Shown: positions 4,560-57,115 of the stretch, piece by piece
How positions within the stretch are numbered: position 1 is the stretch's first letter
Layout: every line of letters starts with the position of its first letter
From: a virus
Taxonomy: Duplodnaviria; Caudoviricetes
DNA length: 62,704 nt
IMG/VR virus record: IMGVR_UViG_3300005837_000598
Location: 1-62,704 of that record
Reading direction: 5' to 3' (one strand)
The notes under the pieces: model-generated
The model's input: the letters and a program-made list of their open reading frames with translations, nothing else
Told to the model about the DNA's origin: nothing
Database searches by the model: none
Made by a program: the position numbers and the translations under genes

Positions 4560-7553
4560 ATGGCTATAGAATTTCTACACTCACTAGATGTATCAGGTGA
4601 TTTACAGGTAGATGGAGCAATTAAAGACTCAGAGGGAGTTGATAAATCCAGTAACTGGAATAAGGCATATAGTTGGGGTGACCATGCAAGTGCAGGTTAT
4701 TTAACCTCAGCAGAAAATTTTTATACACAAGGTGTTACGTTTGACACAAGTAATGGTGTATTAACTATAAATGTCAAAGGTGCTACAAATCGAACAGTAG
4801 ATTTAGACGGAAGATATTTAGTTAAAACCTGGCAAGGTGGAGATGATTATTTTGCAGGACACCATTCAGAAGGTAGAACAATTGTAAATGCTTACTTAGC
4901 AAACGACCTAGCAAACCTCAGACTTAGAGGTGGATCAGTAACAGCAACTAATACTAGTTTTACAGATGCAGAGGTTGATAAAATGTTTGATGGAACTGCT
5001 GCATTTACAGGTATTCCAACATCAGACTTTGATAAAGCACCTGTAGTAATTGAAGTTGTTATACCAAGAGTATTAAGGTATGGTGCTTATGTGGGTATTG
5101 GTTTTGGTAATTCAACATGGAGATGTAAAAAAGTAAAAATAGAGGCACATAGCAATGGTGCTTGGGTTACTTGTATTGATTTAACTAATAATGCCCATGA
5201 AGATGTTTACACAAACATTCCAGGAAATAGTGCAGGAGGTACTGATAAATTTAGAATTACTCTTGATGATCCAAACAATAATGTAAGAGTTTGCCATATA
5301 TGGGCATACAATTATGATTCTAGGCTTTGGTCAGAAACAATGATGCCAAGAGCAGGTGGAACTATGTATGGTGCTTTAACTGTAAATGGCACACTTAACA
5401 GTCACACAATACCTTCAGGATCTGGCACTATTGCTTTAACAAGCGATATCCCAAGCACACCTACAGATTTTGTATCTAAAGCAAATGGTGGAGCATTTGG
5501 AGGTGATATAAGTGTGGCAGGTAATTTAATTCTTACTGGCTCTTCAAATGAAATAATTAAATCTAATGGATCTATTAGGTTAAATATAGATTCAGATAGC
5601 AATCAAACAGATAGAATATTTATAGTTTCTACTGGTTCTAATTCTGAATTATTTAGAGTAGATGAAAGTGGTAATGGAACATTTCAAGGAATACTTTCAG
5701 CAACTGGATATAATTCTGATAACTGGGACAAAGCATACGGATGGGGTGACCATGCAAGTGCAGGATATGGTTCAAGTTCTTTTGATGGAAAATATACATC
5801 TCTAACAGATGTTCCTACATCTTTTACTCCATCAGTTCATAATCATGATGGCAGGTATTTAAAATTAAATGCTAGACTTAAAGCCAATGCTGATACAATA
5901 AATCAGTCAGGAATTCATATTTGGGATGTTAGTGAGTCTACAGATAAGCCTACAGGAGCATCCGATGGGTTGTTAACCACTAAGTATTGGGATTCAGGAG
6001 ATTGGGCAGTTCAGATGTATGAGGACTTTCATCAAAGAGAAATCCATATAAGAAATAAAAGAAGTGGTGCTTGGCAATCAGACTGGGCACAAGTTCATAC
6101 AACAGATAACTTTTCTACAAGCGATGTTTCTAAGGGTGTTACTGCTCATGGTTGGGGTAACCATGCTAATGGAGGGTATTTAAAATCATACACAGAATCA
6201 TCAACACTAGAAGATGTTCGTAATAGAGGTAATGGTATATCAGGTGTAATTAATTTTACTCCAGATACTGGAGATATATTGCAGGTAGATGGTCAAGTAA
6301 TACTTAAAAGAACCACAGCAAATGGTGGAATAACTATTGGTCATGATGATTCAATAATTATTGCAGGTGGTGATACATCAGGGACATTAAATTCCAATAT
6401 TAATAATGCAAACGAGACTGTATATATAGGTGCTGAAGGTGGTATGGAAGTGTACGCTTTCCCAGATAATTTAACTGGAGGATGGGCTGCAAGAAAGACC
6501 TGGAAATTCTCTAACACAGGTGATACTACATTCCCAGGAAAACTTTATCCGACTGCTCAGTCTACTCATTTTGTAGATAGCACCAGAATACAAAATTGGC
6601 AAACAGCCTATGGTTGGGGTGACCACTCAAGTGCAGGATATATAAAATCTGTTACTAATGTATCAGGATACTCAGGAACTCTACTTAGGTCAGATAACAG
6701 AGTAATCAGTCCTTCTGAAGAAACAGCAGGTAGATTAAAGTTTGGATTCACCTCATGGACTAATGATAACAAAGCACCATACGCAGACTTTTTACATTTA
6801 AGAAGTTATACCGACTCTTCAGGAGGTAATGACAACTTGGTAATGTTTAAGAAAGGTGGTATCGGAATGAGGATCTGGCAGCAAGGTTTTGGTTCAACAG
6901 ATGCTTATTCAAACTATGTAGATGTTTGGACTACAGGAGACTTTAACTCCACTACCAAAAGTAACTGGGATACAGCATACGGATGGGGAGATCACGCAGC
7001 AGCAGGATATGTATCAAGATCAAAACCTACAAAACCTGAAATAACATCTAAAATAGTAAACGACACTATTGAGGTAACAATAACAGCATCAACCACATCA
7101 AACATTGATCAATACTTAGTGTTTAGTTCAGTAGTAGGATCTGATTTTGGATTAATATCTGTTATTCCTCCAGAAGACTTTTCAGCAACTATGTCTATTA
7201 TAGATTCCTCTTTTGATTTAGAAGGTAAAATAGATTATAGGGTTTATGCTGTTAAGAATGGGGTTTACTCTGATGCATCAACTACATCTCAAACTTATGA
7301 TGCAGGAACTCTTGAGCCAACAAATGTTAGTGTAATTCCAATGAACGAGGCATTTTATGTTCAATGGGATGAGCCATCTTCCAATACAAGGTTTGTAAAA
7401 AATTATAAATTATATCATGACAGCCATGATGTAGAAGGCTCTTTAGGTAGAAATAATGCGACATTAATATATTCAGGTAAAAGACTGAGTCATATGATAG
7501 CATCAAGTGATTCTAAGTTTAATAAGTTTTGGGTAGAAATTGAAGTATCGTAA
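4560..7553 (+). CDS. Modular tail fibre protein 1
   Basis: 997 aa with five WG[D/N]H linker repeats and FN3-like C-terminal segments. Confidence 0.8.
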   Translation: MAIEFLHSLDVSGDLQVDGAIKDSEGVDKSSNWNKAYSWGDHASAGYLTSAENFYTQGVTFDTSNGVLTINVKGATNRTVDLDGRYLVKTWQGGDDYFAGHHSEGRTIVNAYLANDLANLRLRGGSVTATNTSFTDAEVDKMFDGTAAFTGIPTSDFDKAPVVIEVVIPRVLRYGAYVGIGFGNSTWRCKKVKIEAHSNGAWVTCIDLTNNAHEDVYTNIPGNSAGGTDKFRITLDDPNNNVRVCHIWAYNYDSRLWSETMMPRAGGTMYGALTVNGTLNSHTIPSGSGTIALTSDIPSTPTDFVSKANGGAFGGDISVAGNLILTGSSNEIIKSNGSIRLNIDSDSNQTDRIFIVSTGSNSELFRVDESGNGTFQGILSATGYNSDNWDKAYGWGDHASAGYGSSSFDGKYTSLTDVPTSFTPSVHNHDGRYLKLNARLKANADTINQSGIHIWDVSESTDKPTGASDGLLTTKYWDSGDWAVQMYEDFHQREIHIRNKRSGAWQSDWAQVHTTDNFSTSDVSKGVTAHGWGNHANGGYLKSYTESSTLEDVRNRGNGISGVINFTPDTGDILQVDGQVILKRTTANGGITIGHDDSIIIAGGDTSGTLNSNINNANETVYIGAEGGMEVYAFPDNLTGGWAARKTWKFSNTGDTTFPGKLYPTAQSTHFVDSTRIQNWQTAYGWGDHSSAGYIKSVTNVSGYSGTLLRSDNRVISPSEETAGRLKFGFTSWTNDNKAPYADFLHLRSYTDSSGGNDNLVMFKKGGIGMRIWQQGFGSTDAYSNYVDVWTTGDFNSTTKSNWDTAYGWGDHAAAGYVSRSKPTKPEITSKIVNDTIEVTITASTTSNIDQYLVFSSVVGSDFGLISVIPPEDFSATMSIIDSSFDLEGKIDYRVYAVKNGVYSDASTTSQTYDAGTLEPTNVSVIPMNEAFYVQWDEPSSNTRFVKNYKLYHDSHDVEGSLGRNNATLIYSGKRLSHMIASSDSKFNKFWVEIEVS

Positions 7554-7714
7554 TGAAAGGAGAAAACTTAACATATTGGAAGTGGGTTTTAGGTCAAAGA
7601 GAAAAAGATTTAGAATTAGAAATAAATAGAGAGTTACCAGACGATTATCATATAAAATTGATAAAATCTGAAATACAAGAGGCAACAGAAAAAATAAAAG
7701 AATTAAGTGTTTAA
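7553..7714 (+). CDS. Small 53-aa protein (MKGENLTYWKWVLGQREK...), not in the ORF track
   Basis: ATG overlaps the upstream TAA (TAATG), the frame is open to TAA at 7712-7714, and it fills the gap. Confidence 0.65.
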   Translation: MKGENLTYWKWVLGQREKDLELEINRELPDDYHIKLIKSEIQEATEKIKELSV

Positions 7715-12400: not shown

Positions 12401-13266
12401 CTTTCCAACAAACAGCAAATGGTTTCGCAAACTATAAAAGTGGATGGGCACACTATATTATATCTAATCATGGTAATGGTCAGACGTATTATAATGTAAC
12501 AGATATTAGACCATTCTGGGGTGCACCACAATACTCAAGACAAGAAGGAACAGAAGGGGTTTGGAAAGGGCCATACACATACTGGACAGAAGAGAACTTT
12601 ACTCCAAGTAGTTATTCTAACAAAGCAGCATCGGAAACTTTAACAGGATCAAAAACTTTTTCTAATAGTTATAATGAATTTGGTAATGGTCATGGAAGTG
12701 TAAGTAATAATGGAAGTTGGAATGCTAGGGTAAATATAGCAGGATCTTCACACGCAAGGCTTGATGTTAAATCTGTAAGCGATGGTATTATAACTACAAT
12801 GTTTGCACATATTGGTCAAGCAGCAGGAAAAGTTGGTACATATTCTAATCACAAATTAGACCTATGTATTGCAGGTACTACTAAAGCAAGACTAGAGACT
12901 AGTGGTATATTTAGGACTGCATCAGATATTGTGGCATATTATAGTTTTTCTGATAGAAGACTAAAGACTAATATAGAAAGTACAGAAAATAATTTAGAAA
13001 AAATATTAGCACTAAATCCTGTTAGTTATCAATGGAAAGAGGGTGACCGAAAAGGCAGAACCGAAATTGGACTTATAGCACAAGAGGTAGAAGAAATTAT
13101 ACCAGAAGTAGTAAGAGAACAAGGAAGATTAGAAGATGAGGATATTACTGATTATAAAACAGTTGACTACGAAAAATTAGTATCTACTTTAATTGGTGCA
13201 ATACAAGAGCAACAAAAAGAGATAGATATATTGAAAAATCAAATGAAAGAATGTCATGGCAAATAA
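9427..13266 (+). CDS. Long tail fibre with C-terminal intramolecular chaperone (peptidase S74) domain
   Basis: C-terminal SDRRLKTNI...GLIAQEVEEIIPEVV...VDYEKLVSTLIGAIQEQQ; three WGNHA linkers. Confidence 0.9.
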   Translation: MAETTSQKRHLGITSSTLVSTSDVTIGGNLTVEGTTVTLNAATLEVEDKNILVNKGGTKASADGAGLTIYRGTSSAQTLAWNDANSRFEFSHPLKVATSLYVTGALYKTDANQVDIETPHGTVQIGAMNEHHGHIYTDRPSFYINKPLLIQGNTALTTANTIATDKLPGGVFQTRSTTVGKDTDWDTLTSQGTYGVASSAGAQFEGNNAPKTSDYRYGHVVVTEDEGQGIRQTYYPHSGKKIFTRTGWSNGNWYSGGWHEHWTSLNHPTTISGYGITDTLAPSDAEKNVQVDWNETTTTSDSFIKNKPSIPSAFTGGDVSDPVVVANRSANSILHYAESGNWTGGIKITLPGFHSKSNWSMLVLRVTVYEYNGKTHTMFTASGHDWTSGWYNKSVKKWGSSDKNLNFGYSSSADEDYLLLGEVDSTWSYGHITVDVIAHPSFYSGSMNLDSGWKIEKVTSYEGITRQDVTNEKVWDSGNLTNNSSNWDTAYGWGNHANKYLPLGGGSLTGATTITVGKAGVHALNIRNTDNGGGASISFSDMSASPTTQHGVIDFKHSDTSSYGSGAAFIIGSDQANTTILADGKLMYKEGIYSKPSTGTGAGTRKDSNWDTAYGWGNHASEGYLKSLPSHNHDDRYFTETEMRTFFNRGYIDRHHASNLAVGWYTIATNTGDRALGEFQIWDTASSDHQSVLFSATHHFGQDFSNDITITNQSRYSGTNFRYIRIKDHDTYAGAALQVYIDGATNSCSVAIVGANAQESGWVIKDWIADDTDPGDLSNWSSFGERTKVDLDLMQDGGILTTGKIFAGSQTDQKEVVLSDTNLFAAAGHSHSNYITSNANDTFTGTITMGTQKALVANNYGRGVYGLYSASRFQHVWSMGVAYNVKDDGTTPGNLYGLAFSHTNAGGETKSGLAHQLLIMDNGKTKTALGRGIWTDGTITTTGHGNSSQWNTAYGWGNHADAGYVKQAAVNSSHVDQAKGLSEQGFGTDELTFQQTANGFANYKSGWAHYIISNHGNGQTYYNVTDIRPFWGAPQYSRQEGTEGVWKGPYTYWTEENFTPSSYSNKAASETLTGSKTFSNSYNEFGNGHGSVSNNGSWNARVNIAGSSHARLDVKSVSDGIITTMFAHIGQAAGKVGTYSNHKLDLCIAGTTKARLETSGIFRTASDIVAYYSFSDRRLKTNIESTENNLEKILALNPVSYQWKEGDRKGRTEIGLIAQEVEEIIPEVVREQGRLEDEDITDYKTVDYEKLVSTLIGAIQEQQKEIDILKNQMKECHGK

Positions 13267-16909: not shown

Positions 16910-19900
16910 ATGGAGAACAGTAAAAAAACATTTATAGCAGGATTAAATTCTGACGATGCATTTTTTGCACACAAACAAGACGACAATGTAGATGCGTTGA
17001 ACGCTAGAGTTATATCTTCTTCTGAAGGAAAGTCTGGATCATTGTCAAATATTGTAGGTAATAGACTAATACCTAACCCTTCATTGCTAATTGGTGGTGG
17101 TGACGATAAAGTTATAGGCACTCATGAAGATCCTACTACTAATAATGTTTTTTACTTTGTAACTAAGCCTAATGGGTATTCATATATATTTATGTATGAT
17201 GCCTCATCAGAGTCTATATATATGGTATTGTCAGATGCTAATATGGAATCTACATATACTCTTAATTTTCAAGAACTAGAGCCTATTACAGCAATATCTT
17301 TCATAGATGGTTTATTGTATTGGTCTGGTGTTAGAGATAGAGAGCCATGTAAGATTAATGTAGAAAGAGGTATTAAATTAAATCAACCTGGTTACGCTAC
17401 ATTAGAAACAGCATATGAATCACCAATTAAAAAATCAGTAGTAACTGTAATAAGAAAACCTCCTATGATGCCACTTACTATAAAAGTGGAAGAGGATTCA
17501 ACAAGAGATACTAGTTTTTTAAAATCAAGAAGTTTAACATTCTCATATAGATATGTTTATAAAGATGGTGAGATAAGTGTTTTTGCACCTACTACACCAC
17601 ATTATCCAAACCAAGACATGGATGATGACAATCATGAAACAACTAAAAAAATTGTCGTAGGGTTTCCATTAAATGAGGCAACTCCAACTGGTATTGCAGA
17701 TGATGTAGAAAAAATTCAATTCGCTGTAAAGTTTGATAAAGACACATCATATTTTATATGGAAAGAGTTTACTAGAACATCTCACCCAAATGAATTTAAT
17801 TCTCAAACAAACTATGTTCCTAATGTTATAAAAGGTGATTATCATAATGATGTTTTAGGATCTGCTGTTGATGACAGTAATAGTATAAAACTTTATGATA
17901 CAGTTCCTTATGAGGCACAAGCGTTAGAAATAGGTAGAAACAGATTATTTCTAGGGAACATTAAAGAAGGCTTAGTCAATAATAGGAAAATGACCTCAGC
18001 CGATATGGATGTCGATGTAGTTGTAGCACCATTTGATGTTACGATATTTAATCAAGAAGTTAGGGATAGAGGTGGAATAGTAGGTTACTCCTGCTCATCA
18101 GCATATCAAGTAGGGTTAGCATTTTTTGATTTTGCAGGTAGAACAGCAGGTGTTTTAACTGATGACTCTATGAAGGTTATTACAGCAGAAAGAAATCTAG
18201 TATACACAACATATAATAGTTTTATTGATTTTAATTTAAATGCTACTGCCACAAGTCTGATACCAGACTGGGCAACTCACTACGCTATATTAAGAACTAA
18301 AAATCTTACAAAAGATTTTACTATAGGAAACCTTGCAGACAAAATAAGATATTATCAATATGATAGCACAGGTAATTTTACAGTAAGAATTGAAAAGTTA
18401 GATGCAAATGATGATCCAACTGGAAAATTTTCGCTAAACGAATTCACATCATTTGATATTAAACATGAAGGTATTGCTATTGGGTTAGGTGATTTAACAT
18501 CATACAAGCAGGGTTATAGTTACCAGGAGGGTGACCGAATAAAACTTATTACAGATAGTAAAGTTCTTGAGTTTGCCATTACTGGAACTATGGGTAAATA
18601 TGTTCTTTGTAATCTTGTGAATTTAAATTCTGCTGATTACTTAGCACAATCTTCTTTAGCAAATGCAGACTATACTGTAGTTTATGAAATTTACAGTCCT
18701 CATAAAATACAAGAAAATGAGTTTTATTACGAATCAGTAAGGGGAAAAATACAGAACCCAGGAACTGCAAATAAAACATTTGATCAGTTAACTGGGCATC
18801 TTATTGGAGATGTATATATGAAGGCTAGAAAAGCAGATACATCTTCTGTACCAGTTCACTTTGAAGAGGCTACAGCACTATCTAAGAATGACCATGATGA
18901 GCCATTTAAAGGAAATACAGCATACATAGGCTTTCCATATTTTCATGGAACAGGTCTAAATGATATGACTGCTAACACAGGTATAGGAAATTATAACAAT
19001 GGAGTTGATTGTAGGTTTGAAATAAAAATAACAGCAACTGGAACACCTGACAAATTCCAATGGAGAAGAAGACCATTCAACCAAAGGCTAACAAACCACG
19101 CTTGGAGTAGTGATGTTAATATAACAGGAAACGCACAAACCCTACAGAATAATGTTGCAATTACATTTGCAGCGACCACAGGTCATACAGTAGGTGATGA
19201 ATGGGCAGTCTCTGGTAAAACATCAGGAAATCAATTAGGGAATGTAAACAGTAGAACATACTCACATTTTATATCACCTCCTAATGGGGTAATATTTGCA
19301 GGTAGTGAGGTTAAGGTTTATCAAAAAGAGCATAGAGATAGATGGCCAAGTAGTGATCAAAACCACAGTTTTACTGTAACCATGAACCCTAATGAGATAT
19401 TAGAGAACTATGCAACAATAGAGGAATTCTTTTGGAGATCAACTTTTGGGGTTAAATTATGTGGTTATCATCCTGATCATCATATTTTATTTAGAAGAGG
19501 AACAATTGAGCCTGCTGGAGATAATGGGAAAAGCAGAATGTATATACTTGACTCACAGGCAAATAACAATACAGCAAGTCAAGTAAGTAAGTCAGATGGA
19601 ACTTTGGTTCACTTAATTCTAAAATCTAGCCTAGAACAAAGTAGTGACCTTAATGCACCAGTAGATACTAAGTTTAATATAAGAGTTGATCAGCCAGATG
19701 AGTATAGTTATTCTGCTGAGGCAATGAATCCAAGTGATGATTATTTTTTAAACTGGATTCAAATAACAGGTAGACCTAATCTTATACCTGCTGATGTTAG
19801 TGCACAGAATAAGCCAACTGGTATTGTTTTTAGTGAAACAAAAATACCAGGAAGTAAGGTTAATGGATTGTCCAAGTTTAGTGCTTTAGATGAAGATAGA

Positions 19901-37089: not shown

Positions 37090-37411
37090 ATACATTAAAA
37101 TCTTTATAGACATAAACTGATTTGTGCTTTACAAATGCCTTTATATCATCATAGTTAACTTTTTTATCAAACCCTTGATACAGTAAGTAATAACAATTAC
37201 CTGCACCATTTGGTCTGATAAAATATTCCTCTTTATTTGGTACTACCTCATCAAGTTTAGCAAGCCTTAATAGGTCTACACCTTTTTCAAAAGGTTTTTG
37301 TTTTCCTATTTTACCTCCATACCTGTTATTTTCCCAGGTAACCTTATATAGAACTTGTTCAGTCTTGTCCGTTAAACTTTGCATACTGTCCTTGATGTGT
37401 TGTATTTTCAT
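37073..37411 (-). CDS. Hypothetical protein
   Basis: 112-aa ORF overlapping the primase-helicase 3' end. Confidence 0.6.
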   Translation of the reverse strand: MKIQHIKDSMQSLTDKTEQVLYKVTWENNRYGGKIGKQKPFEKGVDLLRLAKLDEVVPNKEEYFIRPNGAGNCYYLLYQGFDKKVNYDDIKAFVKHKSVYVYKDFNVYGKHK

Positions 37412-39077
37412 ACTCGTTATAACAAGTAGTCTCTAAATTATATTTGAATTCCTGCATACCAGTCTTTCCAGTAAACCTCCATCGTACCTTCCAAACATGA
37501 ACCTCGACTAGTTCGTTCTCGAAATCTCGGTACACAGTAATTCCATTATCTACTTTATTAAAGAAATGGGAAGAGCCACTAACGCTATAACCTGAAGCAA
37601 CCTCTACCTTCCCATTCTCTTTCTTTAATTTCTGTGGGTGAGCAACTAGTATCACTCCACAATCATAAGCCTCTTTAAATATTTTAATTTTTGATAATTG
37701 CAATCCAGTATACTGGTGCTCATTCATTCCTCTTTCTATTTTATGCTCAACGAATGCCCAGTTATCTATGATTAAACAATTAATACCCATTTTCTTTACC
37801 AACTCTTTTCCTTTATTCAATATACCCTCTACTGTAAGATCATTGTCTTTAAGGTTTATGAAATAAAAATGTTTGTTGATGAAATCAATAGCAGGATCTA
37901 ATTCTTCTGGCTGTAGGTTTGTTGCAGAGCCTTTACCAAATTTTTTACCAGTATATTTTTCTATAAGTTCGGCAACATGAACCTTGATTGGTTGTTTTTC
38001 AGCAGAGAATATCCCAAACTTCCACCCTTGCCTTGCTAATTCAACTATAACTTGATCAACAAAAGAAGATTTACCATGCCCTGGAACTCCAGTAACTAAA
38101 GTAAATTCACTTGGCCTCCATGACATTAGTTTATCAAACTCTTTATAACCTATCTCATCACCTTTCGGCATTCCATGGTTATATAAATTGTGTATTTCTT
38201 TACGAGAATCTGATGCCTTACTCACACCTTCTAGTGGAAAAGGTTTTGCACTATCTAAACATTTAACTAATTCAATACTTCCATGCTTAAGCAAGACATC
38301 ATTGGCATCTTTACATCCTTCTGGAAAACTTACTAACCAGATCCTGTCTTTACCAATTCTTCTCGATAATTCATCTCTTAATTTTATTCCTGGTGCATCA
38401 TTATCTAATGCTAAATATATTTTTTCTTTATTTTCAAACTCCTCTATACTATTATCTAGGTATGTGAGGTTTTGATTTCCTGTTGATGCTCCGTTTGGTA
38501 CAGAACAAGCAAAGATTAATCTATCCTGCTGTAATCCTGCCTCATAAAAAGCCATAGCATCAAACTCTCCTTCTGTTATTATACACCATGATGCAGGTTT
38601 AATTAAGTCTAAACCATACATAATCATTTCAGATCCTTTATTTAGTTTAAAGTTTTTCTGTGAATCTCTAAACTTAATATTAATCCTTCTACCTTTTCTG
38701 ATGTAATTAAATTGAATGACAGGCTTTTCTTTTTGTACCTGTGGCATATATTCTGTTCCCTCAGTTACCCCAAAGTATTCTATTGTGCTTTCATTTATCC
38801 CTCTGTCCTTGAAAAATTTTAAAACCTTGTCTGATAATGGAGATGCTTTTACAGTTGGCATCTCATATTCTGTTTTATATTCTGCTACAGATCCATTATC
38901 TCCACAATGATGACAATAATATGTACCAGACTCTACCCATACTCTTAGGCATTTCTCATTCTTATTTCTTTTCCTTGTGTGTGAACACTTTGGACATTTA
39001 GTTTTTTGAGGATCTGTTCCTCCACTTGACTTAACTTCAATTCCAAGTGCTTGCAGTTTAGATAAATTGTCTGTCAT
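37359..39077 (-). CDS. Bifunctional DNA primase-helicase (T7 gp4/Twinkle-like)
   Basis: Zn finger CPKC...CHHC, TOPRIM TEGEFD / SVPNGA / DNDAPG / KDAND, Walker A GVPGHGKS, SF4 motifs LVAHP and SGSSHF. Confidence 0.95.
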   Translation of the reverse strand: MTDNLSKLQALGIEVKSSGGTDPQKTKCPKCSHTRKRNKNEKCLRVWVESGTYYCHHCGDNGSVAEYKTEYEMPTVKASPLSDKVLKFFKDRGINESTIEYFGVTEGTEYMPQVQKEKPVIQFNYIRKGRRINIKFRDSQKNFKLNKGSEMIMYGLDLIKPASWCIITEGEFDAMAFYEAGLQQDRLIFACSVPNGASTGNQNLTYLDNSIEEFENKEKIYLALDNDAPGIKLRDELSRRIGKDRIWLVSFPEGCKDANDVLLKHGSIELVKCLDSAKPFPLEGVSKASDSRKEIHNLYNHGMPKGDEIGYKEFDKLMSWRPSEFTLVTGVPGHGKSSFVDQVIVELARQGWKFGIFSAEKQPIKVHVAELIEKYTGKKFGKGSATNLQPEELDPAIDFINKHFYFINLKDNDLTVEGILNKGKELVKKMGINCLIIDNWAFVEHKIERGMNEHQYTGLQLSKIKIFKEAYDCGVILVAHPQKLKKENGKVEVASGYSVSGSSHFFNKVDNGITVYRDFENELVEVHVWKVRWRFTGKTGMQEFKYNLETTCYNEYENTTHQGQYAKFNGQD

Positions 39078-39688
39078 ATTATTGCTACTCTTTTTCTGTT
39101 GGGGGTGACCTTGTTACTAGTCTCCCACTCTTTATATTGTATTAGGTACTTCTCAATAAATTTATTTCCGAAGATAACCTCTGGTGTTACTGAAGATTGA
39201 TACTTCTCACTCCATTGTTCTTTACAGTAATCAAATACATTGACCATCATAGATCCTGTTACTGGTTTACCATCAAACTTTTTAGCCAGAATGCTCTTAA
39301 ATCTTTTTTCGTATGTTCTTGGTTGGTAATTCTTTTTATATCTGTTATTAATATATTCAATTACATCTTTACATACGTTCTGATATTCAAGTGATATAAC
39401 TTGGTCTGTTTCTGCTACTGCGATTCTAAACCATAATGGTGTAGTTCTATATTTTGGATGTGCCTTAGTTCCTATATTGTCTATTAGTCCTTTTTCTGTA
39501 AGTTCTGATATATATCTACTCATAGTTCTGGAAGATGTATTTAGTTCAGAGCCAAGATCTGCTAAGGTTTTATCACAGTAATTGTCTTGCGATGTATACT
39601 TATAGATTAAATCACACAACATATATGACAATGGTGACATATCGTGTTTGCGTAAGACTTCATAAATTACAGTTGTACTTCTTATCAT
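39074..39688 (-). CDS. Putative replication initiator (wHTH N-terminus plus conserved phage C-terminal domain)
   Basis: KTLADLGSELNTSSRTMSRYISELTEKGLI wHTH; VIEYIN...W...TPEVIFGNKF.EKYL; directly upstream of the helicase. Confidence 0.7.
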   Translation of the reverse strand: MIRSTTVIYEVLRKHDMSPLSYMLCDLIYKYTSQDNYCDKTLADLGSELNTSSRTMSRYISELTEKGLIDNIGTKAHPKYRTTPLWFRIAVAETDQVISLEYQNVCKDVIEYINNRYKKNYQPRTYEKRFKSILAKKFDGKPVTGSMMVNVFDYCKEQWSEKYQSSVTPEVIFGNKFIEKYLIQYKEWETSNKVTPNRKRVAII

Positions 39689-44812: not shown

Positions 44813-44919
44813 TAGTGAGTTATTATAATTATTAAAATTGTTATACCAAGTCCGATCATGCTAAAGAACGCACCTTTGTAATTAGTTTCCATTTGTTGGG
44901 GTGACCTTCCTTGATTCAT
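44812..44919 (-). CDS. Small single-TM protein (35 aa, MNQGRSPQQMETNYKGAFFSMIGLGITILIIIITH)
   Basis: Hand-translated; ATGA overlap with the 44916 ORF stop; hydrophobic C-terminus. Confidence 0.5.
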   Translation of the reverse strand: MNQGRSPQQMETNYKGAFFSMIGLGITILIIIITH

Positions 44920-47503: not shown

Positions 47504-48061
47504 TTACGCCAAGTAGGTATTTTGAATGTGCTGTATCATGGTAGTAATATTGCTACCAGTACAAGCCATTGTTGGATTGTCATCCTCATCTACTTTTACA
47601 CCATCTTCAACATCATCCAGAACAACACATTCATGGGTGCATTCTAAATCATCTCTCCAGAGACTTGTTGTGTTCTCATCCATGTACTTGATTAATCTCT
47701 GGACATCTGCTTTCAAAGATTCGTAGTCTGATTCTGGGGTGACCTCATCCTTATTCCATGAGTGGGTAAAGTGCTTATCAAATTCTGGTTCACCTTCCTC
47801 ATACATTTTACCATCTACCTCAACGTACTGGATATCATCTGGACATTCCCAATCAGTATAGTAGTAGTAATCATTATTGTAGGCATCTTCTAATAATTTA
47901 TCATCAGATGATTTAGAATTACCAGTTACCTCTCTAAGATGTTTAATCATATCAGATTCATGTTTGATATACATTGCACCTTCTCCGATACAATATCCAG
48001 ATGACATACCTTCTCCAGTAATGTCACATTTGCGAGGGTGTAAAATTGCTTTCTGTTTCAT
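47504..48061 (-). CDS. Acidic hypothetical early protein
   Basis: 185 aa; PRKCDITGEGMSSGY...YYYTDWE motif. Confidence 0.7.
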   Translation of the reverse strand: MKQKAILHPRKCDITGEGMSSGYCIGEGAMYIKHESDMIKHLREVTGNSKSSDDKLLEDAYNNDYYYYTDWECPDDIQYVEVDGKMYEEGEPEFDKHFTHSWNKDEVTPESDYESLKADVQRLIKYMDENTTSLWRDDLECTHECVVLDDVEDGVKVDEDDNPTMACTGSNITTMIQHIQNTYLA

Positions 48062-48295: not shown

Positions 48296-49231
48296 TTACG
48301 CAACAAGAGTGCTTAATGAATTAAACACTTTCTGGTCAAGTCGTTGAAGACCTCCAACGTACTTAGACTCTTCTCTAGTTCTATCTGAACCACCTTTGTG
48401 AGTTGTGTAATGAGTTACACCAGAAAACAATCCCCAAAGCGTTTGACCTTTGTAAGACATTTCTTTAACTACAGACTGTACTAAATCTTGAGTCTGGTTT
48501 AACTTTCTGGTTGAGTATTGCTCTTTTGCACTAGCCTCTCCCATTGATACATCCACACCAGTAACAAGATTAATTGTCTGGTTCACTAATTTTTGGGTGA
48601 CCTTCTCATTAGCCATTCTAGAGAAAATCTCAAACAAAGTCTTGTCTGCTTGTTCCATATTCTCTATAATGCGTAAAGACCTTTGAACAGCATCTCTCAT
48701 ATTAGCAGTATGTCTAACAGAGTTCTGTAATTCTTTACTAAGTGCAGAGAATTGATTAGCACATGAAACAGTAGTTCCAGTTGTTCCCCATCTTAATGAG
48801 CATGAACCATCATGAGAATTGATAGCAGTTGCTTTTCTGGTAATTGTATCATCTCCAACAAATTTGTCTTCGAGATTAACTTGAAGCATTACTTTTCTGC
48901 CTCCTTTGAATTCTTGACCATTTGAAATTGGCTGTCCGATTACATCAGCAATCTCCAGTACAAGTTCAGCAAGTTCTGAATTCTGGAAAGTTTCATATTG
49001 ATTAGTAAATGCACCAAAGCAATCGTTGTTGTCAGTTCTAACTACTCCAAAGAAATCTGTAGCAGTTGTGATTGTTTTACCTTGATGAATATTTGAGGGA
49101 GACTCAAATGTTAGGGGGTACTTCTTAACATTCCAGTTAAGATTGAATTTGTGTAGCAGTTCTTCTGCTTGTGTTAGGTTTACACTTTTTAAGTTTGTGT
49201 CGATTAAGCGACCTTCTGAATTTAAATACAT
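48296..49231 (-). CDS. DUF932/DUF945-family protein
   Basis: LNWNV...VVRTDN...YETFQN, GGRKV, NSHDGS, VSCANQ, RHTAN, TLWGLFSGVTHYTTH. Confidence 0.88.
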   Translation of the reverse strand: MYLNSEGRLIDTNLKSVNLTQAEELLHKFNLNWNVKKYPLTFESPSNIHQGKTITTATDFFGVVRTDNNDCFGAFTNQYETFQNSELAELVLEIADVIGQPISNGQEFKGGRKVMLQVNLEDKFVGDDTITRKATAINSHDGSCSLRWGTTGTTVSCANQFSALSKELQNSVRHTANMRDAVQRSLRIIENMEQADKTLFEIFSRMANEKVTQKLVNQTINLVTGVDVSMGEASAKEQYSTRKLNQTQDLVQSVVKEMSYKGQTLWGLFSGVTHYTTHKGGSDRTREESKYVGGLQRLDQKVFNSLSTLVA

Positions 49232-49276
49232 AGTTTAAATATTTAGTTTAAATCCCTAGAGACTATCTCAAGGGCA

Positions 49277-49290
49277 TGAACCATCGTTCA
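49277..49290. promoter_or_regulatory. Palindromic operator TGAAC-CATC-GTTCA beside a minus-strand -7-like element (TATTATTG, 49296-49303)
   Basis: Perfect 5-bp arms upstream of DUF932. Confidence 0.55.
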
Positions 49291-49614
49291 CATTGCAATA
49301 ATACAATAATATTTTGAATTAACAATAATGTTGATAAAATAATTTAAAATAAAGTTTTTAGACCTCTGGTGTGGGGGGTAAACAATTAACGATTGTAGAT
49401 TTTAAAAGTTTGAGTCTTGTACTTTATAGAACCTTTGGCCTTTGTTAATTTTACCAGAAACTGGAAAGTAGTTGTCCAGATCCTTTGATTGTTGTTTCCA
49501 TATCTGGTGGAGGTGTTGTTTTTGTTTGAGTTCAGCGATTATCTGGATTGTCGTTTTTTTCATGTCTGGGGGGTATTTGATTAATGATTTTGGGGTGACC
49601 TTAGTCTTATATTA

Positions 49615-50001
49615 CTATAGAGAGAGATAACATTCCCGTATAAGGTAATTATAAATCCTACGGAGTTGTGTACGACCATAGATAGAGACATTGAATTGTT
49701 GTTTGGTGTACTTCTCTCGTTTTGTCTGGCGTTCAATAAAACCTTCGTTCAATAGTCTTTTGTGTTCTCTATAGAATTGATGAGGGGATGAAATCTTTAC
49801 CAGTTCCATTTTATCCAGTAGTTGAAGAACCTTTTTTATTTCGTAGTATGTGAAATCTGATTTACATTCTGATTCTACTATACTACATCCAAGAAAGATA
49901 TAAATTGTTTTAGGTGTAAAGTCATTGTCCAGACTTCGCAAGTATTTTTGTATGGCTTTATTGTGGCTAAATAGTTCTCTTAATTTGTTGGCTACTTTCA
50001 T
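49615..50001 (-). CDS. Winged-HTH (MarR-like) DNA-binding protein
   Basis: FYREHKRLLNEGFIER...FNVSIYGRTQL wing motif. Confidence 0.6.
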   Translation of the reverse strand: MKVANKLRELFSHNKAIQKYLRSLDNDFTPKTIYIFLGCSIVESECKSDFTYYEIKKVLQLLDKMELVKISSPHQFYREHKRLLNEGFIERQTKREKYTKQQFNVSIYGRTQLRRIYNYLIRECYLSL

Positions 50002-50354
50002 TTAGTTTTATGTTGGTTTTGTTTTGTGGTTAAATTGTTCAAAGCATTACTCCATCTTTATAAAGAGGAGGAAAAAATTCCAAAACTTCATCGGAGTTAC
50101 ATTTTTTTGTTGTTGGTTTCCCATTTTGCATAGTAAATGAAGAAAAAACAACACAAATCGTGATAGTCTGGCTTGTAAAGTGCTGACAACCAGTAGTGTA
50201 TGAGTATTTGTTCGATTCCTATTGAGAATCGGTTTTGATTTTAGAATGCATTTAATCACACCTACCCAGTTCGCCAAATCCACTTCCACTCTCGGACAAA
50301 AGCCACCATATATATACTATTACCACATCTTGATGCCTACAATGAGTTTCTGAG

Positions 50355-50362
50355 CAAATATA
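50355..50362 (-). promoter_or_regulatory. Bacteroidota-type -7 element (TATATTTG), leftward
   Basis: TAnnTTTG match in the non-coding region. Confidence 0.4.
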
Positions 50363-50460
50363 AGAAACTTAAATTAAATTTTAATGCTACCATATCATAG
50401 CGATTTAGATCGTTTCTTAGACGAAAGATTTGGGGTGAAAGATCGTTACTCGGTAAATAT

Positions 50461-50665: not shown

Positions 50666-51271
50666 ATGAATATGATTGGATCAAAGATAGCAGTTCGAGT
50701 TACCAAAAAATATAACGATGAGGTTACTTTTGGAAACGGAGATAAGTTATACTTAGATGTTACGTTTAATCCTGAACACCATGTAACGATATGTGGAGAG
50801 GTCGTGGCTTTACCTAGAGGTGAGTGGTGCAGGAATACACATGGTGATTTTATTGCACAAGAATTAAAAGTAGGTGACAAAGTCTATTTTAATTACTTAA
50901 CAGTTGATAAGGATAATTTAATCTTCGGAGAGAACGACATATATACTTGTGATTTAGAAGATTGTTTTTGTAAAGTCGATGGTGATGGTATAACTGCTAT
51001 CTCCAATCATGTTTTAATAGAGCCATTAATGACTGATGAAATGCATGGATCTATTTATTTAGGAGAGCCTAAGATGTCAGAAACTGAAGGATATGTAAGA
51101 TTTTTAAGTACCCCATTGAAAGATAAAGAAGATTTAGGATTAACACCAGGGGATCTAGTTAAGTTTCATGAGAGGTATGCTTTTCTAAACACTATAGAAG
51201 ACATAAAATTTTATATAATGAGACAGACTGATGTGATGGGAAAAATAGAACATTCTGGAAGGGCCATTTGA
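50666..51271 (+). CDS. GroES-like co-chaperonin (tandem domains)
   Basis: GEVVALP...LKVGDKVYF and NHVLIEP...GSIYL...GYV...PGDLVKF...FYIMRQTDVMG. Confidence 0.75.
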   Translation: MNMIGSKIAVRVTKKYNDEVTFGNGDKLYLDVTFNPEHHVTICGEVVALPRGEWCRNTHGDFIAQELKVGDKVYFNYLTVDKDNLIFGENDIYTCDLEDCFCKVDGDGITAISNHVLIEPLMTDEMHGSIYLGEPKMSETEGYVRFLSTPLKDKEDLGLTPGDLVKFHERYAFLNTIEDIKFYIMRQTDVMGKIEHSGRAI

Positions 51272-51323
51272 TATACCTCAATGCATAAGCGATCATGCTC
51301 GACTTTATGTCGATTCAAGAGTC

Positions 51324-51809
51324 ATGGCTAATCGTGACCATTACAAAAAACTTTATTGGAAATCAAGATCATATCAATATAAAAACCCTGTATTGTTTGA
51401 CCACCCAGTTGACAATGAATTTTATACAGACTTTAAAGGCATACTTGCCGAGTTACTAGTACGTCATCACTTTGATTTAAAAGGGACAAATTATACAACC
51501 TCAGCCTTTGTAAAAGAAAAAGGGGTTAGTGATCCTGACTTAATAGCCAATAATTATAAGATAGATGTAAAGGGATGTGAGAGATCCTTGAAAGTAAATA
51601 TGTTTACTATAGATAAGTTAGAGGTTGACTATATCATCTTTGTGTTATTTCTAACAGGTCAAAGGTATGTGATACTTAATTTTAAAAAGGAAGATATAAA
51701 GGAATGGAATCTAGTAACTGTTAATGAAAGAAATAAGTATTACGAGTTTAAGGTAGATAAACGCAAGTGGAGATATTCTGACACCCCAAATTCTGATACC
51801 CCCAAATAA
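51324..51809 (+). CDS. PD-(D/E)xK nuclease-like protein (start may extend to about 51252)
   Basis: GILAELLV...DPDL....IDVKG. Confidence 0.6.
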   Translation: MANRDHYKKLYWKSRSYQYKNPVLFDHPVDNEFYTDFKGILAELLVRHHFDLKGTNYTTSAFVKEKGVSDPDLIANNYKIDVKGCERSLKVNMFTIDKLEVDYIIFVLFLTGQRYVILNFKKEDIKEWNLVTVNERNKYYEFKVDKRKWRYSDTPNSDTPK

Positions 51810-51822
51810 AAAATTTTTAAAA

Positions 51823-52149
51823 ATGAGTCGTAAAAAATCTAACCATCACGATGGACACCCCCAATTAAAATTCCTAAAAAAAATTCCCTGGTATAATAAA
51901 TTATTAAGGTACGCAGTAAAACAAAGAAAACTAACCCCCATAGAAAGAATTTCGAATCGACTAGGATACATGGGTACATCATTTATTATGGTATCCCCCT
52001 ATTTACTAAAATATGACAACATAGGTGCTGTAACTTATGTGATCGGTGGATTGTTATCTATACCCCAGGTTTTTGTAGCAAAGCAATGGAATATTGTTGC
52101 TGTTAACTTGAATGTGACTTTGGGTTATTTAATTTATCTACTGTTTTGA
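51823..52149 (+). CDS. Small membrane protein (about 3 TM)
   Basis: Hydrophobic segments with LSIPQV..KQWN. Confidence 0.65.
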   Translation: MSRKKSNHHDGHPQLKFLKKIPWYNKLLRYAVKQRKLTPIERISNRLGYMGTSFIMVSPYLLKYDNIGAVTYVIGGLLSIPQVFVAKQWNIVAVNLNVTLGYLIYLLF

Positions 52150-52415
52150 AAAAACATACTAAATTATATCACGAACACTTTATGTACGAACCAGGGGACT
52201 GGATTGGTTGTGAGGTCTGTGATAAAACAGCAGTTGATATTCATCACATAGATGCAAGAGGATTAGGAGGATCAAAAGATAAAGACACCCCAGAAAACCT
52301 TATGGCACTTTGTAGAGAATGTCATTCGTATTTTGGAGATAAGAAACAGTTTAAACGAATGCTAAAAACTATGCACCATGCAAACATTAAGAAAATCATC
52401 ACCAGAAACTCCTAA
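52146..52415 (+). CDS. HNH endonuclease
   Basis: CEVC...DIHHI...NLMALCRECH; TTG start. Confidence 0.9.
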   Translation: MKKHTKLYHEHFMYEPGDWIGCEVCDKTAVDIHHIDARGLGGSKDKDTPENLMALCRECHSYFGDKKQFKRMLKTMHHANIKKIITRNS

Positions 52416-52527
52416 AGAAATCTTAGAAAGAATATTAAGATTAAAGTTAGAACACCCCTATCACCCCAAAATAAAGCATCTTCAGGTTTTATATGATCTA
52501 ATGACTAAGGAAGATTTTAAAGCCTAG
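52378..52527 (+). CDS. Possible small protein (49 aa, MQTLRKSSPETPKEILERILRLK...)
   Basis: Hand-translated ORF filling the gap. Confidence 0.35.
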   Translation: MQTLRKSSPETPKEILERILRLKLEHPYHPKIKHLQVLYDLMTKEDFKA

Positions 52528-52711
52528 ATACGAGTCTATCTATTTTATCAATAATATTTAACTTAACCCCATACAAATCTGCTGAGTTTGCACTTTCTAG
52601 AGTTTGTAATACATCAATTAATAATTCTAACTTTCTCATATTAAGCACCTCTTCTTTATCTTCTAAAGTAACTTGAAAGGTGTGATTGTCATTAGGCAAA
52701 GGGTTGTCCAT
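52517..52711 (-). CDS. Small hypothetical protein (MDNPLPND...)
   Basis: ATG 52711 with A-rich leader. Confidence 0.55.
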   Translation of the reverse strand: MDNPLPNDNHTFQVTLEDKEEVLNMRKLELLIDVLQTLESANSADLYGVKLNIIDKIDRLVSRL

Positions 52712-53512: not shown

Positions 53513-53516
53513 AATA

Positions 53517-53876: not shown

Positions 53877-53886
53877 ATCAATTGTA

Positions 53887-54057
53887 TTATGAGCCACACC
53901 CAACACATTCTATATAAGAATCTTCAGGCTTAACTCCATTAATTTTCATTTTAATATTATGGATCTGATCAGCCAGTTCCATTTGAATACCAAAATCATC
54001 AGTACGTTTCTTCTGTAATTCTAGTTCTTCTATTTTTTTTTCTAACTCAGTCATCAT
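53887..54057 (-). CDS. 56-aa protein ending ECVGCGS, not in the ORF track
   Basis: Hand translation MMTELEKKIEELELQKKRTDDFGIQMELADQIHNIKMKINGVKPEDSYIECVGCGS; ATGA coupling. Confidence 0.75.
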   Translation of the reverse strand: MMTELEKKIEELELQKKRTDDFGIQMELADQIHNIKMKINGVKPEDSYIECVGCGS

Positions 54058-54359
54058 TTTGCTTTCTCTAACATCTTCTTAGTCTTATTAACATGATATT
54101 TTTTACCATCAGCAGTATCCTCCATATATTCTTTTTTGACTGGAGTAACCTCGGTATTCATATTTAATTTTTCTTTGACTTTCTTTTTTATAGACTGAAT
54201 CTTTTCACCAGTTTTAGTTCTAGTTTTATTTTGTTTAAAGTCTTTTTTAATTGCTTTATTCTTTAATTTTCTTTCAAGGTTCATTGCTCTATTCTCCTTA
54301 CCTAATTTTCTAAGTTGAGCAATTTTTTCTTTTAACCTTTTAATTTTTTCTTCATCCAT
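54054..54359 (-). CDS. Lys-rich basic hypothetical protein
   Basis: 101-aa ORF. Confidence 0.6.
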   Translation of the reverse strand: MDEEKIKRLKEKIAQLRKLGKENRAMNLERKLKNKAIKKDFKQNKTRTKTGEKIQSIKKKVKEKLNMNTEVTPVKKEYMEDTADGKKYHVNKTKKMLEKAK

Positions 54360-54361
54360 AA

Positions 54362-55465: not shown

Positions 55466-55467
55466 TA

Positions 55468-55824
55468 CTAGAATTTTGATTCAACCACCTCGTCTATAAC
55501 TTTTTGTATGTCGGTGATTTTGACATCTAATTCAAAAAGTATGTTAGCCTCCCATCGTCTTACCACTCGACCATTATCATATATAACTATAGTGGGAACA
55601 ACGGATATTTCTTCGTCTTTCATAGCATCAACATCCTTCTCAATATCTACTCTATGCTTAGATGCACTAGAGAGGTCACCCCAATCTTTTAATTCGTTTT
55701 GTTCAACAAAGGATGCTGTAAAGCAAACAACTGATATACCATCTTTATACTCTTGAGAATAAGAACTCATACTAAAGAATAGTAGGAATAGTACAACAAA
55801 AAGTTTTTTACTTAGAGAGTTCAT
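55468..55824 (-). CDS. Exported thioredoxin-fold protein lacking CxxC
   Basis: Signal peptide, VVCFTASF, RVDI, ISVVPTIVIYDNG...RW. Confidence 0.7.
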   Translation of the reverse strand: MNSLSKKLFVVLFLLFFSMSSYSQEYKDGISVVCFTASFVEQNELKDWGDLSSASKHRVDIEKDVDAMKDEEISVVPTIVIYDNGRVVRRWEANILFELDVKITDIQKVIDEVVESKF

Positions 55825-56095
55825 ACAATCTTTCTTCCATTTTACTTAGTTGTTCTTGGATAGCCTTTACATTGTCGTCAATATTGTTTATTTGGTTTCT
55901 AACCATTTTATCTTTTATATCAAACTCAACCCTACTAATTGGAGGATCAGGGATTATATAATCCTTTTTATCGAGTTTTCCATCTATTTGTGCTTGTACA
56001 GTAAACCAGAAACTTACTAGTGTGAAGATCAAAAATCCAATTCCTACTAAGGATTGAATTGACAATGTAAATTCTGTTTCTTTAGATAATTTCAT
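55808..56095 (-). CDS. Single-TM plus coiled-coil protein
   Basis: TM, then PDPPISRVEFDIKD, then a heptad tail. Confidence 0.65.
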   Translation of the reverse strand: MKLSKETEFTLSIQSLVGIGFLIFTLVSFWFTVQAQIDGKLDKKDYIIPDPPISRVEFDIKDKMVRNQINNIDDNVKAIQEQLSKMEERLYELSK

Positions 56096-56101
56096 TTTAT
56101 A

Positions 56102-56347
56102 CTACCATGTTTTACAGGCCCAGTATCTCGCTTTCCATCTTGGGCCAGGGTTATCACAATTATGTCTTGCACGAAATGATTTTCTTCTTGATGGAATGTT
56201 TTTCTTAATCTTCATGTTAGGATCTCCAAAATGCACAACAGTAACCTTACCATTGGGTTTCTTCACATAGACCTTGCTTTTTTTAGCAGGCCGTTCTGAT
56301 TTCATGATTTTATTAAGAGTTACATTCTTTCCTTGATGCAAAGCCAT
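56102..56347 (-). CDS. DUF5754-like small basic protein
   Basis: KK.KVYV...VHFGD...RRKSFRARH.C...ARYWACKTW. Confidence 0.7.
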   Translation of the reverse strand: MALHQGKNVTLNKIMKSERPAKKSKVYVKKPNGKVTVVHFGDPNMKIKKNIPSRRKSFRARHNCDNPGPRWKARYWACKTW

Positions 56348-56363
56348 TATCGTAATTTTGCTC

Positions 56364-56371
56364 CAAATATA
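56364..56371 (-). promoter_or_regulatory. Bacteroidota-type -7 element (TATATTTG) for the leftward operon
   Basis: TAnnTTTG 16 nt upstream of ATG 56347. Confidence 0.6.
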
Positions 56372-56476
56372 GTATTTGACTTTCTGGCCACTACAAATAT
56401 TTAATAGTCAGAATAATGTATAGTACCCTGTTAGAGACATAAAACTGGTTATTGAATTTTAGAACATAAATTTTAA

Positions 56477-56506
56477 TTGGTCATTAATAGTAAAAACATA
56501 CTTTTG
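56477..56506 (+). promoter_or_regulatory. Bacteroidota-type promoter TTG-19 nt-TACTTTTG for the packaging/structural operon
   Basis: -33/-7 elements at canonical spacing upstream of ATG 56522. Confidence 0.65.
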
Positions 56507-56521
56507 CTTAAAACCAACAAT

Positions 56522-57115
56522 ATGTCTTTAACTGAAATCTTCAATAAAGAAGACTTTGATAAGATGATATTTAATCCCTATAGGATTAAGTCATTAAAAA
56601 GAAAGTACCCAAAACTAAAAATGTTTAAGACCTTTCAGAAGGCTGATGATCAAATGATCAGTTATGTATTATATATGTACGATCAAAACACGCCTATGAA
56701 AGAGCAGTTCCCTGATTTAAAAGTCAGGAAGGAACAATGTGCTGTGTTGTCTGGATATGATTTAGTAAAAGACAATGAAGTGTTACATGATATGTTTTTC
56801 TTTTTATCAGAGAAACTTATAGTAATGGTTGATGAGTTTTTAAGAAAACAAAACAATAGGATATGGTCAATGATTGTTTCTAATGAGCAAACCTTCTTTG
56901 AATATCAAACTAAACTATTAAGTCCAGTTGAGGGTGACCGAGACAAAGACATATTACAAGCATTACAAATTAAGTCTAAAATCATGGATGATTTAAATAC
57001 AATCAATGATAGACTAGACTCTTATTATATGAAACTATATGGTGAAGATCAAGAACTTTTAAAAGTAATTAAAGCAGATAAAAGGTTGACACCAGAGTTT
57101 ATTGCCAATCTATGA
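56522..57115 (+). CDS. Protein upstream of TerL (possible small terminase)
   Basis: ATGA-coupled to TerL; start moved to ATG 56522 after the promoter. Confidence 0.55.
   Translation: MSLTEIFNKEDFDKMIFNPYRIKSLKRKYPKLKMFKTFQKADDQMISYVLYMYDQNTPMKEQFPDLKVRKEQCAVLSGYDLVKDNEVLHDMFFFLSEKLIVMVDEFLRKQNNRIWSMIVSNEQTFFEYQTKLLSPVEGDRDKDILQALQIKSKIMDDLNTINDRLDSYYMKLYGEDQELLKVIKADKRLTPEFIANL

Follow-up and report, generated by a model that had tools for sequence, protein, structure and literature searches.

We analyzed a phage genome of 62,704 bases (IMG/VR record IMGVR_UViG_3300005837_000598, Caudoviricetes; the full viral record, termed the window throughout), in which the word GGGTGACC occurs 12 times on the + strand and once on the − strand. 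This word is a directional signal on the DNA molecule itself and not a by-product of codons, since it is enriched over codon-preserving shuffles and keeps to one strand in related genomes, including DNA without homologue among them; an earlier note on this DNA, which had proposed a directional cis-signal, was borne out in this respect. The signal is real, selected, placed on one strand, private to one phage clade and dependent on all of its eight letters. Among known systems the one-strand nick motif of phage tf, the LUZ24-like phages and T5 comes closest, and by this analogy GGGTGACC may be a nick signal, a reading to which we assign a probability of roughly 35%. Both the nicking itself and the identity of the enzyme responsible are inferences.

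The 12 + positions and the − position 55674 given in the earlier note were reproduced to the nucleotide. It had put the expectation at 0.15 copies per strand; a first-order Markov model gives the slightly higher value of 0.26. For both strands together the chance expectation is 0.52, and in 100 dinucleotide shuffles the maximum was 2, none reaching 13. No other 8-mer of this genome is over-represented as strongly as GGGTGACC (z 23). The view that codon content alone is insufficient was confirmed by the control which the earlier note had called for: permuting synonymous codons within genes yielded a mean + count of 2.64 (maximum 6) and permuting whole codons a mean of 2.13 (maximum 5), both means including two intergenic copies that were left untouched, and in neither set did any of 1000 shuffles reach 12. 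Furthermore, the polarity is independent of gene direction. Within the + gene blocks the density per 10 kb is 1.59 sense versus 0 antisense, within the − gene blocks 0.54 sense versus 2.68 antisense. The copies run sense inside + genes and antisense or through non-coding DNA across the − block from 35.8 to 50.3 kb.

A by-product of coding or composition, arising from Gly-Asp or Val-Thr codon pairs, from the repeats in the fibre genes and from coding strands rich in G, would account for the three copies in WGDH repeats and for the RNY phase shared by all coding copies (G-GGT-GAC-C or G-GTC-ACC-C). This explanation is refuted by the shuffles, by the antisense and non-coding copies of the − block, by the rare codons that spell a copy in the large terminase gene TerL of relatives, where loss of the copy involved joint changes at two or three synonymous sites (see below), and by the backwards word, used as a control, which occurs 0 or 1 time in every viral record; what probability remains for it is negligible.

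The first three copies (4676..4683, 5744..5751 and 6617..6624, all +) run sense through the W-G-D-H repeats of the fibre gene 4560-7553, as the earlier note had claimed; the second position is specific to the lineage, the third is common to the relatives G001 and G002. Two more sense copies on the + strand appear as GAGGGTGACCGA, at 13041..13048 in gene 9427-13266 (common to G002, with GGGTGAAC at this place in G001) and at 18529..18536 in gene 16910-22129 (common to G001 and G502). The copy at 29233..29240 (+) is sense in the gene of a 2720-aa virion protein and lies in DNA without homologue in the compared relatives. Across the − genes, the copy at 39103..39110 (+) runs antisense through the initiator-like gene 39074-39688 (−) at its 3′ end and lies 26 nucleotides ahead of the start of the primase-helicase gene on the − strand; it is common to G001 and G002, and G006 reads GGGCGACC. 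The copy at 44899..44906 (+) is lineage-specific and lies just 3′ of the − gene 44916-45281, either intergenic or inside an open reading frame of 35 aa. Antisense copies on the + strand follow at 47737..47744 (− gene 47504-48061, lineage-specific) and 48595..48602 (DUF932 gene 48296-49231 (−), common to G011 and G502). The non-coding copy at 49593..49600 (+) is the most widely shared single-locus position, found in 5 of 7 genomes; a conserved ATTACTATAG follows it after 12-14 nucleotides (stretch 49593-49625), with homologues in G001, G006, G011 and G502. The sole reversed copy, 55674..55681 (−), is sense in the − gene 55468-55824 and precedes the TerL start by 1438 nucleotides, and the last + copy, again as GAGGGTGACCGA, is sense at 56932..56939 in gene 56477-57115, which adjoins TerL upstream and is by its position a putative small terminase; this copy is common to G011. 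As a side observation, the fibre genes 4560-7553 and 9427-13266 repeat the peptide Y-x-W-G-(D/N)-H, the Asp form of which corresponds to GGGTGACC and the Asn form to GGGTAACC or GGGTAATC.

The recognition is sharp. One-mismatch variants of the word were seen 15 times versus about 15 expected (strand split 10:5), compared to 13 exact copies versus about 0.5 expected, and because the variants are not enriched every one of the eight letters is required. One representative was taken for each of 40 independent positions in seven genomes. Of these 40, 24 have T at −3, 36 have T or G at −2 (a single one has A), 30 have a purine at −1 and 33 have A or T at +1. The flank consensus is consequently T-K-R on the 5′ side and W on the 3′ side, so that the recognized unit probably comprises 10-11 letters. 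The excess of the word also bears on another explanation of its orientation. Type III restriction is evaded by site orientation, as in the case of T7 and EcoP15I, and the bias could in principle evade a Type III or Type ISP enzyme that needs head-to-head sites, which would fit that nearly all copies share one orientation. Such evasion, however, predicts bias without excess, and a 25- to 50-fold excess is seen (13 versus 0.52). Because the word is in excess we consider restriction evasion highly improbable; it also leaves the restored reversed copy, described below, unexplained.

For comparison, 75 viral contigs encoding a TerL relative were found, and GGGTGACC was counted in 18 whole records oriented on TerL. 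The clade to which the window belongs comprises more than 60 contigs from many samples and is marine, uncultured and abundant. Its close members (TerL 83-94% identical) keep the word on the same strand, with counts of 11:1 (G001), 11:1 (G002), 9:1 (G011), 7:1 (G014), 6:1 (G015), 6:1 (G006), 5:0 (G003), 4:0 (G016) and 3:0 (G012), so that the same motif recurs in relatives, a check which the earlier note had proposed. Seven more distant relatives (TerL 40-54%) carry 0 or 1 copy, and a de novo search in three distant TerL relatives (G007, G008 and G009) gave no comparable polar 8-mer. A further 15 records were reached via the primase. All 11 of those whose primase is at least 76% identical are polarized (0:9, 0:7, 0:7, 0:6, 0:5, 0:5, 0:4, 0:4, 5:0, 3:1 and 9:3), and the word is absent from all four whose primase is 41-42% identical. 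In one of the latter type, G498 (42% identical primase), GGTGAAGTT occurs 9:0 and was considered as a parallel polar word; it was rejected as uninformative, its genes lying nearly all on one strand, the word standing mostly in frame and the record appearing to contain a duplicated stretch. The motif positions in this 35,483-bp record (L200-L201), listed as 100% complete, recur about 27.4-27.5 kb apart, so that it probably represents a concatemeric assembly longer than a single genome.

The nucleotide identity among the genomes of the clade is 65-79% over about half of their length. In seven genomes, 71 copies were assigned to 40 positional classes; 13 of these classes are shared and 27 are confined to a single genome, and by strand 35 are + and 5 −. 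Many of the private copies lie in DNA without homologue in the other genomes and yet have the same orientation, and this is the strongest evidence suggesting that both the orientation and the number of copies are under selection. Two genomes deviate. G003 (56,075-bp record, L031; TerL 88%, primase 89% identical; G+C content 37%, which is higher) is an outlier with 5 copies, none reversed, and a weak polarity of the short core GGGGT (36:23). In G502 (64,043-bp record, complete, L140) three copies are reversed, of which one lies in TerL and the other two in structural genes, an exception to the rule of a single reversed copy.

The position of the reversed copy was surveyed in 52 close loci oriented on TerL. 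In 35 of them it lies 638 nucleotides inside TerL, and nine loci without the TerL copy carry a reversed copy 1045, 1199 or 1589 nucleotides upstream instead, compared to 1438 nucleotides in the window. Eight loci have no reversed copy, two of which (L023 and L048) hold too little upstream DNA to judge. A TerL copy together with an upstream copy was found in none of the 52 loci, and in none of the 23 TerL-copy loci that extend at least 1.6 kb upstream. The copy in TerL is spelled by the rare codons GGG GTC ACC CCA within the invariant peptide KGVTPT, and where it is absent usually two or three synonymous sites have changed together, e.g. to GGA GTT ACA; in the window the corresponding place (57750..57757, −) reads AGTTACAC, the TerL copy thus being lost and the one at 55674 taking its place. 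The TerL tree requires at least six changes of the reversed-copy character, and four separate lineages without the TerL copy hold replacements at four different upstream places. By chance about 0.008 reversed copies are expected per 2 kb, as calculated from the first-order Markov figure. Because four separate replacements after loss stand against this value, the reversed copy itself looks functional and selected, one being kept within approximately −1.6 to +0.64 kb of the TerL start. The idea that genome ends arise by staggered nicking at the reversed copy and the one next to it was rejected, as the two come in opposite order in the window (− then +) and in G011 (+ then −), and in G001 no second copy lies nearby.

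How, then, might the word be used? In the reading we favour, a protein of this phage lineage would recognize GGGTGACC with its T-K-R and W flanks in a strand-specific manner, and a programmed single-strand nick would be placed at each copy, in the virion or in late intracellular DNA. The most plausible nicking enzyme would be a small HNH endonuclease of 89 aa (52146..52415, +), which according to domain analysis has two CxxC pairs and for which each of the seven close relatives compared has a homologue (72-80% identity). HNH proteins of small size encoded by phages beside terminase genes, with a [CxxC]2 arrangement, are described as site- and strand-specific nickases (PMC3592412). This candidate resembles these enzymes (N.phiGamma and others, encoded next to cos and terminase genes) in its size, its two CxxC pairs and its packaging-gene neighbourhood; in the window an accessory − block separates its gene from TerL, and the characterized enzymes read 3-7 bp.

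Similar motifs are described for nicked phages. In Pseudomonas phage tf, whose 46-kb genome has two convergent gene sets, TACTRTGMC occurs 14 times, always on the top strand and always nicked; our recount gave 14:0, and the record NC_017971 (L208) annotates the nicks. Several of these annotated nicks lie at gene starts, the RTG of TACT/RTGMC being the start codon of tf_04, tf_15 and tf_41, and the window copies are not at gene starts. In phage Rembedalsseter WACTRTGAC occurs 13 times, on one strand; at each copy the Nanopore depth drops in a strand-specific manner, and the word is enriched in 60 relatives. In T5 and BF23 the nicks lie on one strand, with the consensus R/GCGCRGG (quoted in PMC3517423). 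The function of the nicks in tf, Rembedalsseter and T5/BF23 is a long-standing puzzle. A literature search for GGGTGACC itself returned only unrelated items, mostly DNA-barcoding studies.

An asymmetric word of eight to nine letters, repeated in 13-14 copies on one strand (12:1 in the window) regardless of gene direction, is common to tf, Rembedalsseter and the LUZ24-like phages on the one hand and the window on the other; the word is kept in relatives at partly shared positions, and both words contain the letters GTGAC. T5 and BF23 are comparable in that their interruptions occur at a short consensus and on a single strand, the minus strand. For the nick reading we count the sharp, restriction-enzyme-like recognition, the retention of the word in relatives at partly shared and partly lineage-specific positions as in the LUZ24 group, the lack of a host-word excess (see below) and the presence of only five copies in G003. 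Copy number, word length, sharp specificity, conservation within the clade with turnover and indifference to gene direction match the nick motifs by analogy. There are differences as well: the nicks are proven in those phages and putative in the window; the hosts are Pseudomonas and probably marine Bacteroidota, respectively; and no protein similarity was found between tf and the window. T5 has few major and many minor nicks and a consensus that also occurs un-nicked on the other strand, unlike the sharply defined word of the window.

Several observations weigh against programmed nicks. The window is not strictly one-stranded, since a single reversed copy is kept, selected and replaced when lost, and a short core of the word switches strand within a defined 6-kb zone; a plain nick system predicts neither, and tf has 0 copies on the other strand. 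The motif-less relative G007 holds a 53% identical HNH protein, and the nickases characterized in PMC3592412 read 3-7 bp and not 8-11. When 60 window proteins were compared by tblastn with the tf genome, nothing matched at E up to 0.01, which has little weight, as the tf nick literature used here names no nickase. The 23 sequencing runs exist as assembled contigs, so that read ends are not visible. The assembled contigs of the runs X1, X2, X4 and X9, compared on 44000-62704, displayed no pile-up of begins or ends, no listed variant inside the copies and no usable step in depth; being assembled data, they have no weight either way.

The strand switch concerns the short core TTGGGGT and occupies 50.4-56.4 kb, adjoining an AT-rich palindrome. 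The lists of GGGGT and ACCCC positions in the earlier note were reproduced exactly: a left array on the + strand (49115..50436) has GGGGT at 49115, 49375, 49570, 49592 and 50432, and a right array on the − strand (51110..52570) has ACCCC on the + strand at 51110, 51783, 51798, 51857, 51934, 52062, 52287, 52454, 52463 and 52566, followed by further ACCCC at 53810 and 55678 and with the listed exception of GGGGT at 51522. Nine of the 12 − core copies of the zone are concentrated within 0.8 kb (51783-52566), spanning the HNH gene and the small open reading frame after it. Copies of the right array have a T-rich stretch before GGGGT (TTTGGGGTGT), and several are one letter off the full word, e.g. 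GGGTGTCC at 51853. Both arrays point toward each other across the spacer 50460-50530 between divergent gene blocks, which holds AT-rich palindromes and two tandem 19-mers (TATATAATATACTTATATA) and marks the place where the core changes strand.

Using 212 words of 4-6 nucleotides, the zone from 50.4 to 56.4 kb was compared with all DNA outside it, + and − genes being treated separately. The seven words with the lowest p (7e-8 to 2e-3) were CCCC, ACCCC, CCCCA, CACCC, CCCA, ACCC and ACCCCA. In + genes the ratio of ACCCC to GGGGT is 2 to 25 outside and 8 to 2 inside the zone, in − genes 2 to 8 outside and 4 to 0 inside. Since the core polarity is back to + near 56-58 kb, the pattern is an inverted zone of 6-7 kb; of the flip near 50.5 kb proposed earlier, the change of polarity at this place stands, mainly for the short core, and the idea of a single flip does not. 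The same core layout is repeated in six relatives (G001, G002, G004, G005, G006 and G011), which are not independent cases because the DNA there is homologous. Turnover of the core is evident in the window, which has made two copies by synonymous C changes (CAC CCC TAT CAC CCC versus CAT CCA TAT CAT CCT in relatives). A small conserved open reading frame (...LEHPYHP...) follows the 89-aa HNH protein within 52146-52520.

Near the left border of the zone, 12 related contigs begin 5.0-6.0 kb before TerL, with starts scattered over the window equivalent of 49.4-50.5 kb and no common nucleotide. This region may be break-prone or variable, an origin, or the ends; the contig breaks were rejected as mapped physical ends, since the scatter makes the region look break-prone or variable. 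A long terminal repeat corresponding to the inverted zone was likewise not supported: contigs of X1 and X2 cross both borders, and the depth of the X2 contigs is about equal inside and outside. A clean reversal of the general GC skew was not seen in the zone.

The main rival to the nick reading is that the replication machinery reads the word. Dependence of polarity on position is what such a fork-linked reading would lead one to expect. A gp4-type primase-helicase moving along one strand could start primers at GGGTGACC, the approximately 12 + copies marking the lagging-strand template of the fork by which some 90% of the genome is copied. Near TerL, the single reversed copy would start the strand running the other way (the leading strand or a short arm), and the core arrays facing each other across the palindrome at 50.46-50.53 kb would mark either an origin or the termini of a linear replicating molecule. 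GGGTGACC, GGTCACCC and TTGGGGTG are the candidate template words tied to this reading, and its candidate reader is encoded at 37359..39077 (−), with a Cys4 zinc ribbon (CPKC...CHHC), Toprim (Toprim_2) and DnaB_C domains, a match to primase-helicase PHROG 239 at E 8.5e-92 and 24.6% identity to T7 gp4 (E 2e-18). It belongs to the sole protein family in the genome known for directional scanning of single strands. The word is polarized wherever the primase is at least 76% identical, in 11 of 11 records, and TerL relatives without this replication module carry 0-1 copies. The seven top flipping words of the inverted 6-7 kb zone are all sub-words of the CACCCCA family. Exactly one reversed copy within the flexible zone of −1.6 to +0.64 kb, with its four replacements, fits the need for one start on the other strand. 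The T7 gp4 primase recognizes GTC, with the full sites GGGTC, TGGTC and GTGTC; the core GGGT plus purine resembles GGGTC, and the complement of the word holds GGTC.

The likeness to T7, whose gp4 has a homologue in the window, does not extend further. Sites of T7 gp4 have 3-5 letters and are common on both strands without polarity, unlike the rare and exact word of 8-11 letters in the window. In the T7 genome the full sites are neither polar nor rare (GGGTC 39 on the top versus 55 on the bottom strand, TGGTC 79 versus 62). Known gp4-type primases read three letters, and the requirement for all eight letters, with one-mismatch variants at chance, is unlike them. Furthermore, G003 combines an 89% identical primase with just 5 copies and the weak core polarity mentioned above, the group with 41-42% identical primases is without any copy, some copies are separated by 7-10 kb, a long distance for Okazaki starts, and the scattered contig ends of relatives share no single nucleotide. 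A strand change is observed at 50.4 kb and again at 56-58 kb. We regard it as nearly as likely as the nick reading that GGGTGACC is a long exact start signal for the gp4-type primase-helicase or another fork-coupled reader, in which case the strand map would be a direct readout of replication.

A polar word might also be read by the host. Like Chi (RecBCD/AddAB) and KOPS (FtsK), GGGTGACC is an eight-letter, orientation-dependent word whose orientation changes at defined points of the replicon. A nuclease of the RecBCD/AddAB type, or FtsK, would read it from one side, with the + copies protecting rolling-circle tails or one end and the reversed copy the other end. The spacing of about 5 kb and the single opposite copy near the packaging genes would suit such protection, as would a gene content with a YqaJ/RecE-type exonuclease and a RusA-like protein in which no DNA polymerase or nuclease inhibitor was recognized. 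Chi and KOPS, however, are over-represented in host chromosomes, and in the 493 Bacteroidia-class genomes searched the counts of GGGTGACC are about those of the backwards control. The set comprised 5 Bacteroidota genomes that contain TerL relatives, 87 from a single order and 401 from the class, and no comparable excess was found in any of them, although the host of the phage may be unsampled. Of the 401, G201 and G285 are unpublished; the negative result is independent of both. The highest density in these 493 genomes is about 68 per Mb versus 207 per Mb in the phage. No strand domains of the word were present in G400, the one genome inspected in full, where an apparent + run was an artefact of list order. 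The KOPS/Chi option of the earlier note is thus unsupported in the genomes searched, and we regard a host-read word as improbable. A role other than nicking, priming or a Chi-like function is rather unlikely too, albeit far from negligible.

The gene map of the window comprises blocks of alternating direction. Structural and lysis genes occupy 43-35669 (+), including fibres, virion proteins of 1739 aa and 2720 aa, an amidase and a holin. The early/replication block 35802-50289 (−) encodes the RusA-like protein, a winged-helix initiator-like protein, the YqaJ/RecE-type exonuclease, a tyrosine recombinase and DUF932. A paralogous DUF3127 pair (36127-36489 and 39685-39945) within this block is SSB-like, and the PHROGs label for one of the two is single-strand DNA binding protein. 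A short block follows at 50666-52415 (+), the last gene of which is the HNH endonuclease, and then a variable block at 52517-56347 (−), whose content differs among relatives and which resembles an inserted accessory region between the HNH/small-ORF pair and terS/TerL. Within its gene 52845-53189 (−), 6-8 head-to-tail units of 9 nucleotides (GCTGCCTTT-like) at 53096-53175 are probably a coding repeat of a tri-peptide. The packaging genes TerL (57112-59100) and portal (59097-61382) are on the + strand. No DNA polymerase was recognized among the window genes. According to IMG/VR the ends of the record are direct terminal repeats and its completeness is 100; the terminal direct repeat measures 26 bases only, i.e. 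the size of an assembly overlap. As the closest named phages are Flavobacterium and Cellulophaga phages (TerL identity only about 30%) and TerL relatives within cellular genomes are found in Bacteroidota metagenome-assembled genomes and one Flavisolibacter chromosome, the host is probably a marine member of the Bacteroidota.

One-strand words are known as nick sites from a few cultured phages, where their purpose is a decades-old puzzle, and the present case extends to an abundant uncultured marine clade. Two features are new compared to plain nick motifs, namely a reversed copy that is restored nearby after loss and a zone in which the short core changes strand, and both tie the signal to place and direction on the chromosome, such as in replication or packaging. 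The 40 positional classes together with the natural loss-and-replacement events provide a comparative test set. If the primase-helicase indeed started primers at GGGTGACC, it would be the first primase-type enzyme with a recognition word of 8-11 letters, and this could connect the enigmatic phage nicks with discontinuous synthesis.

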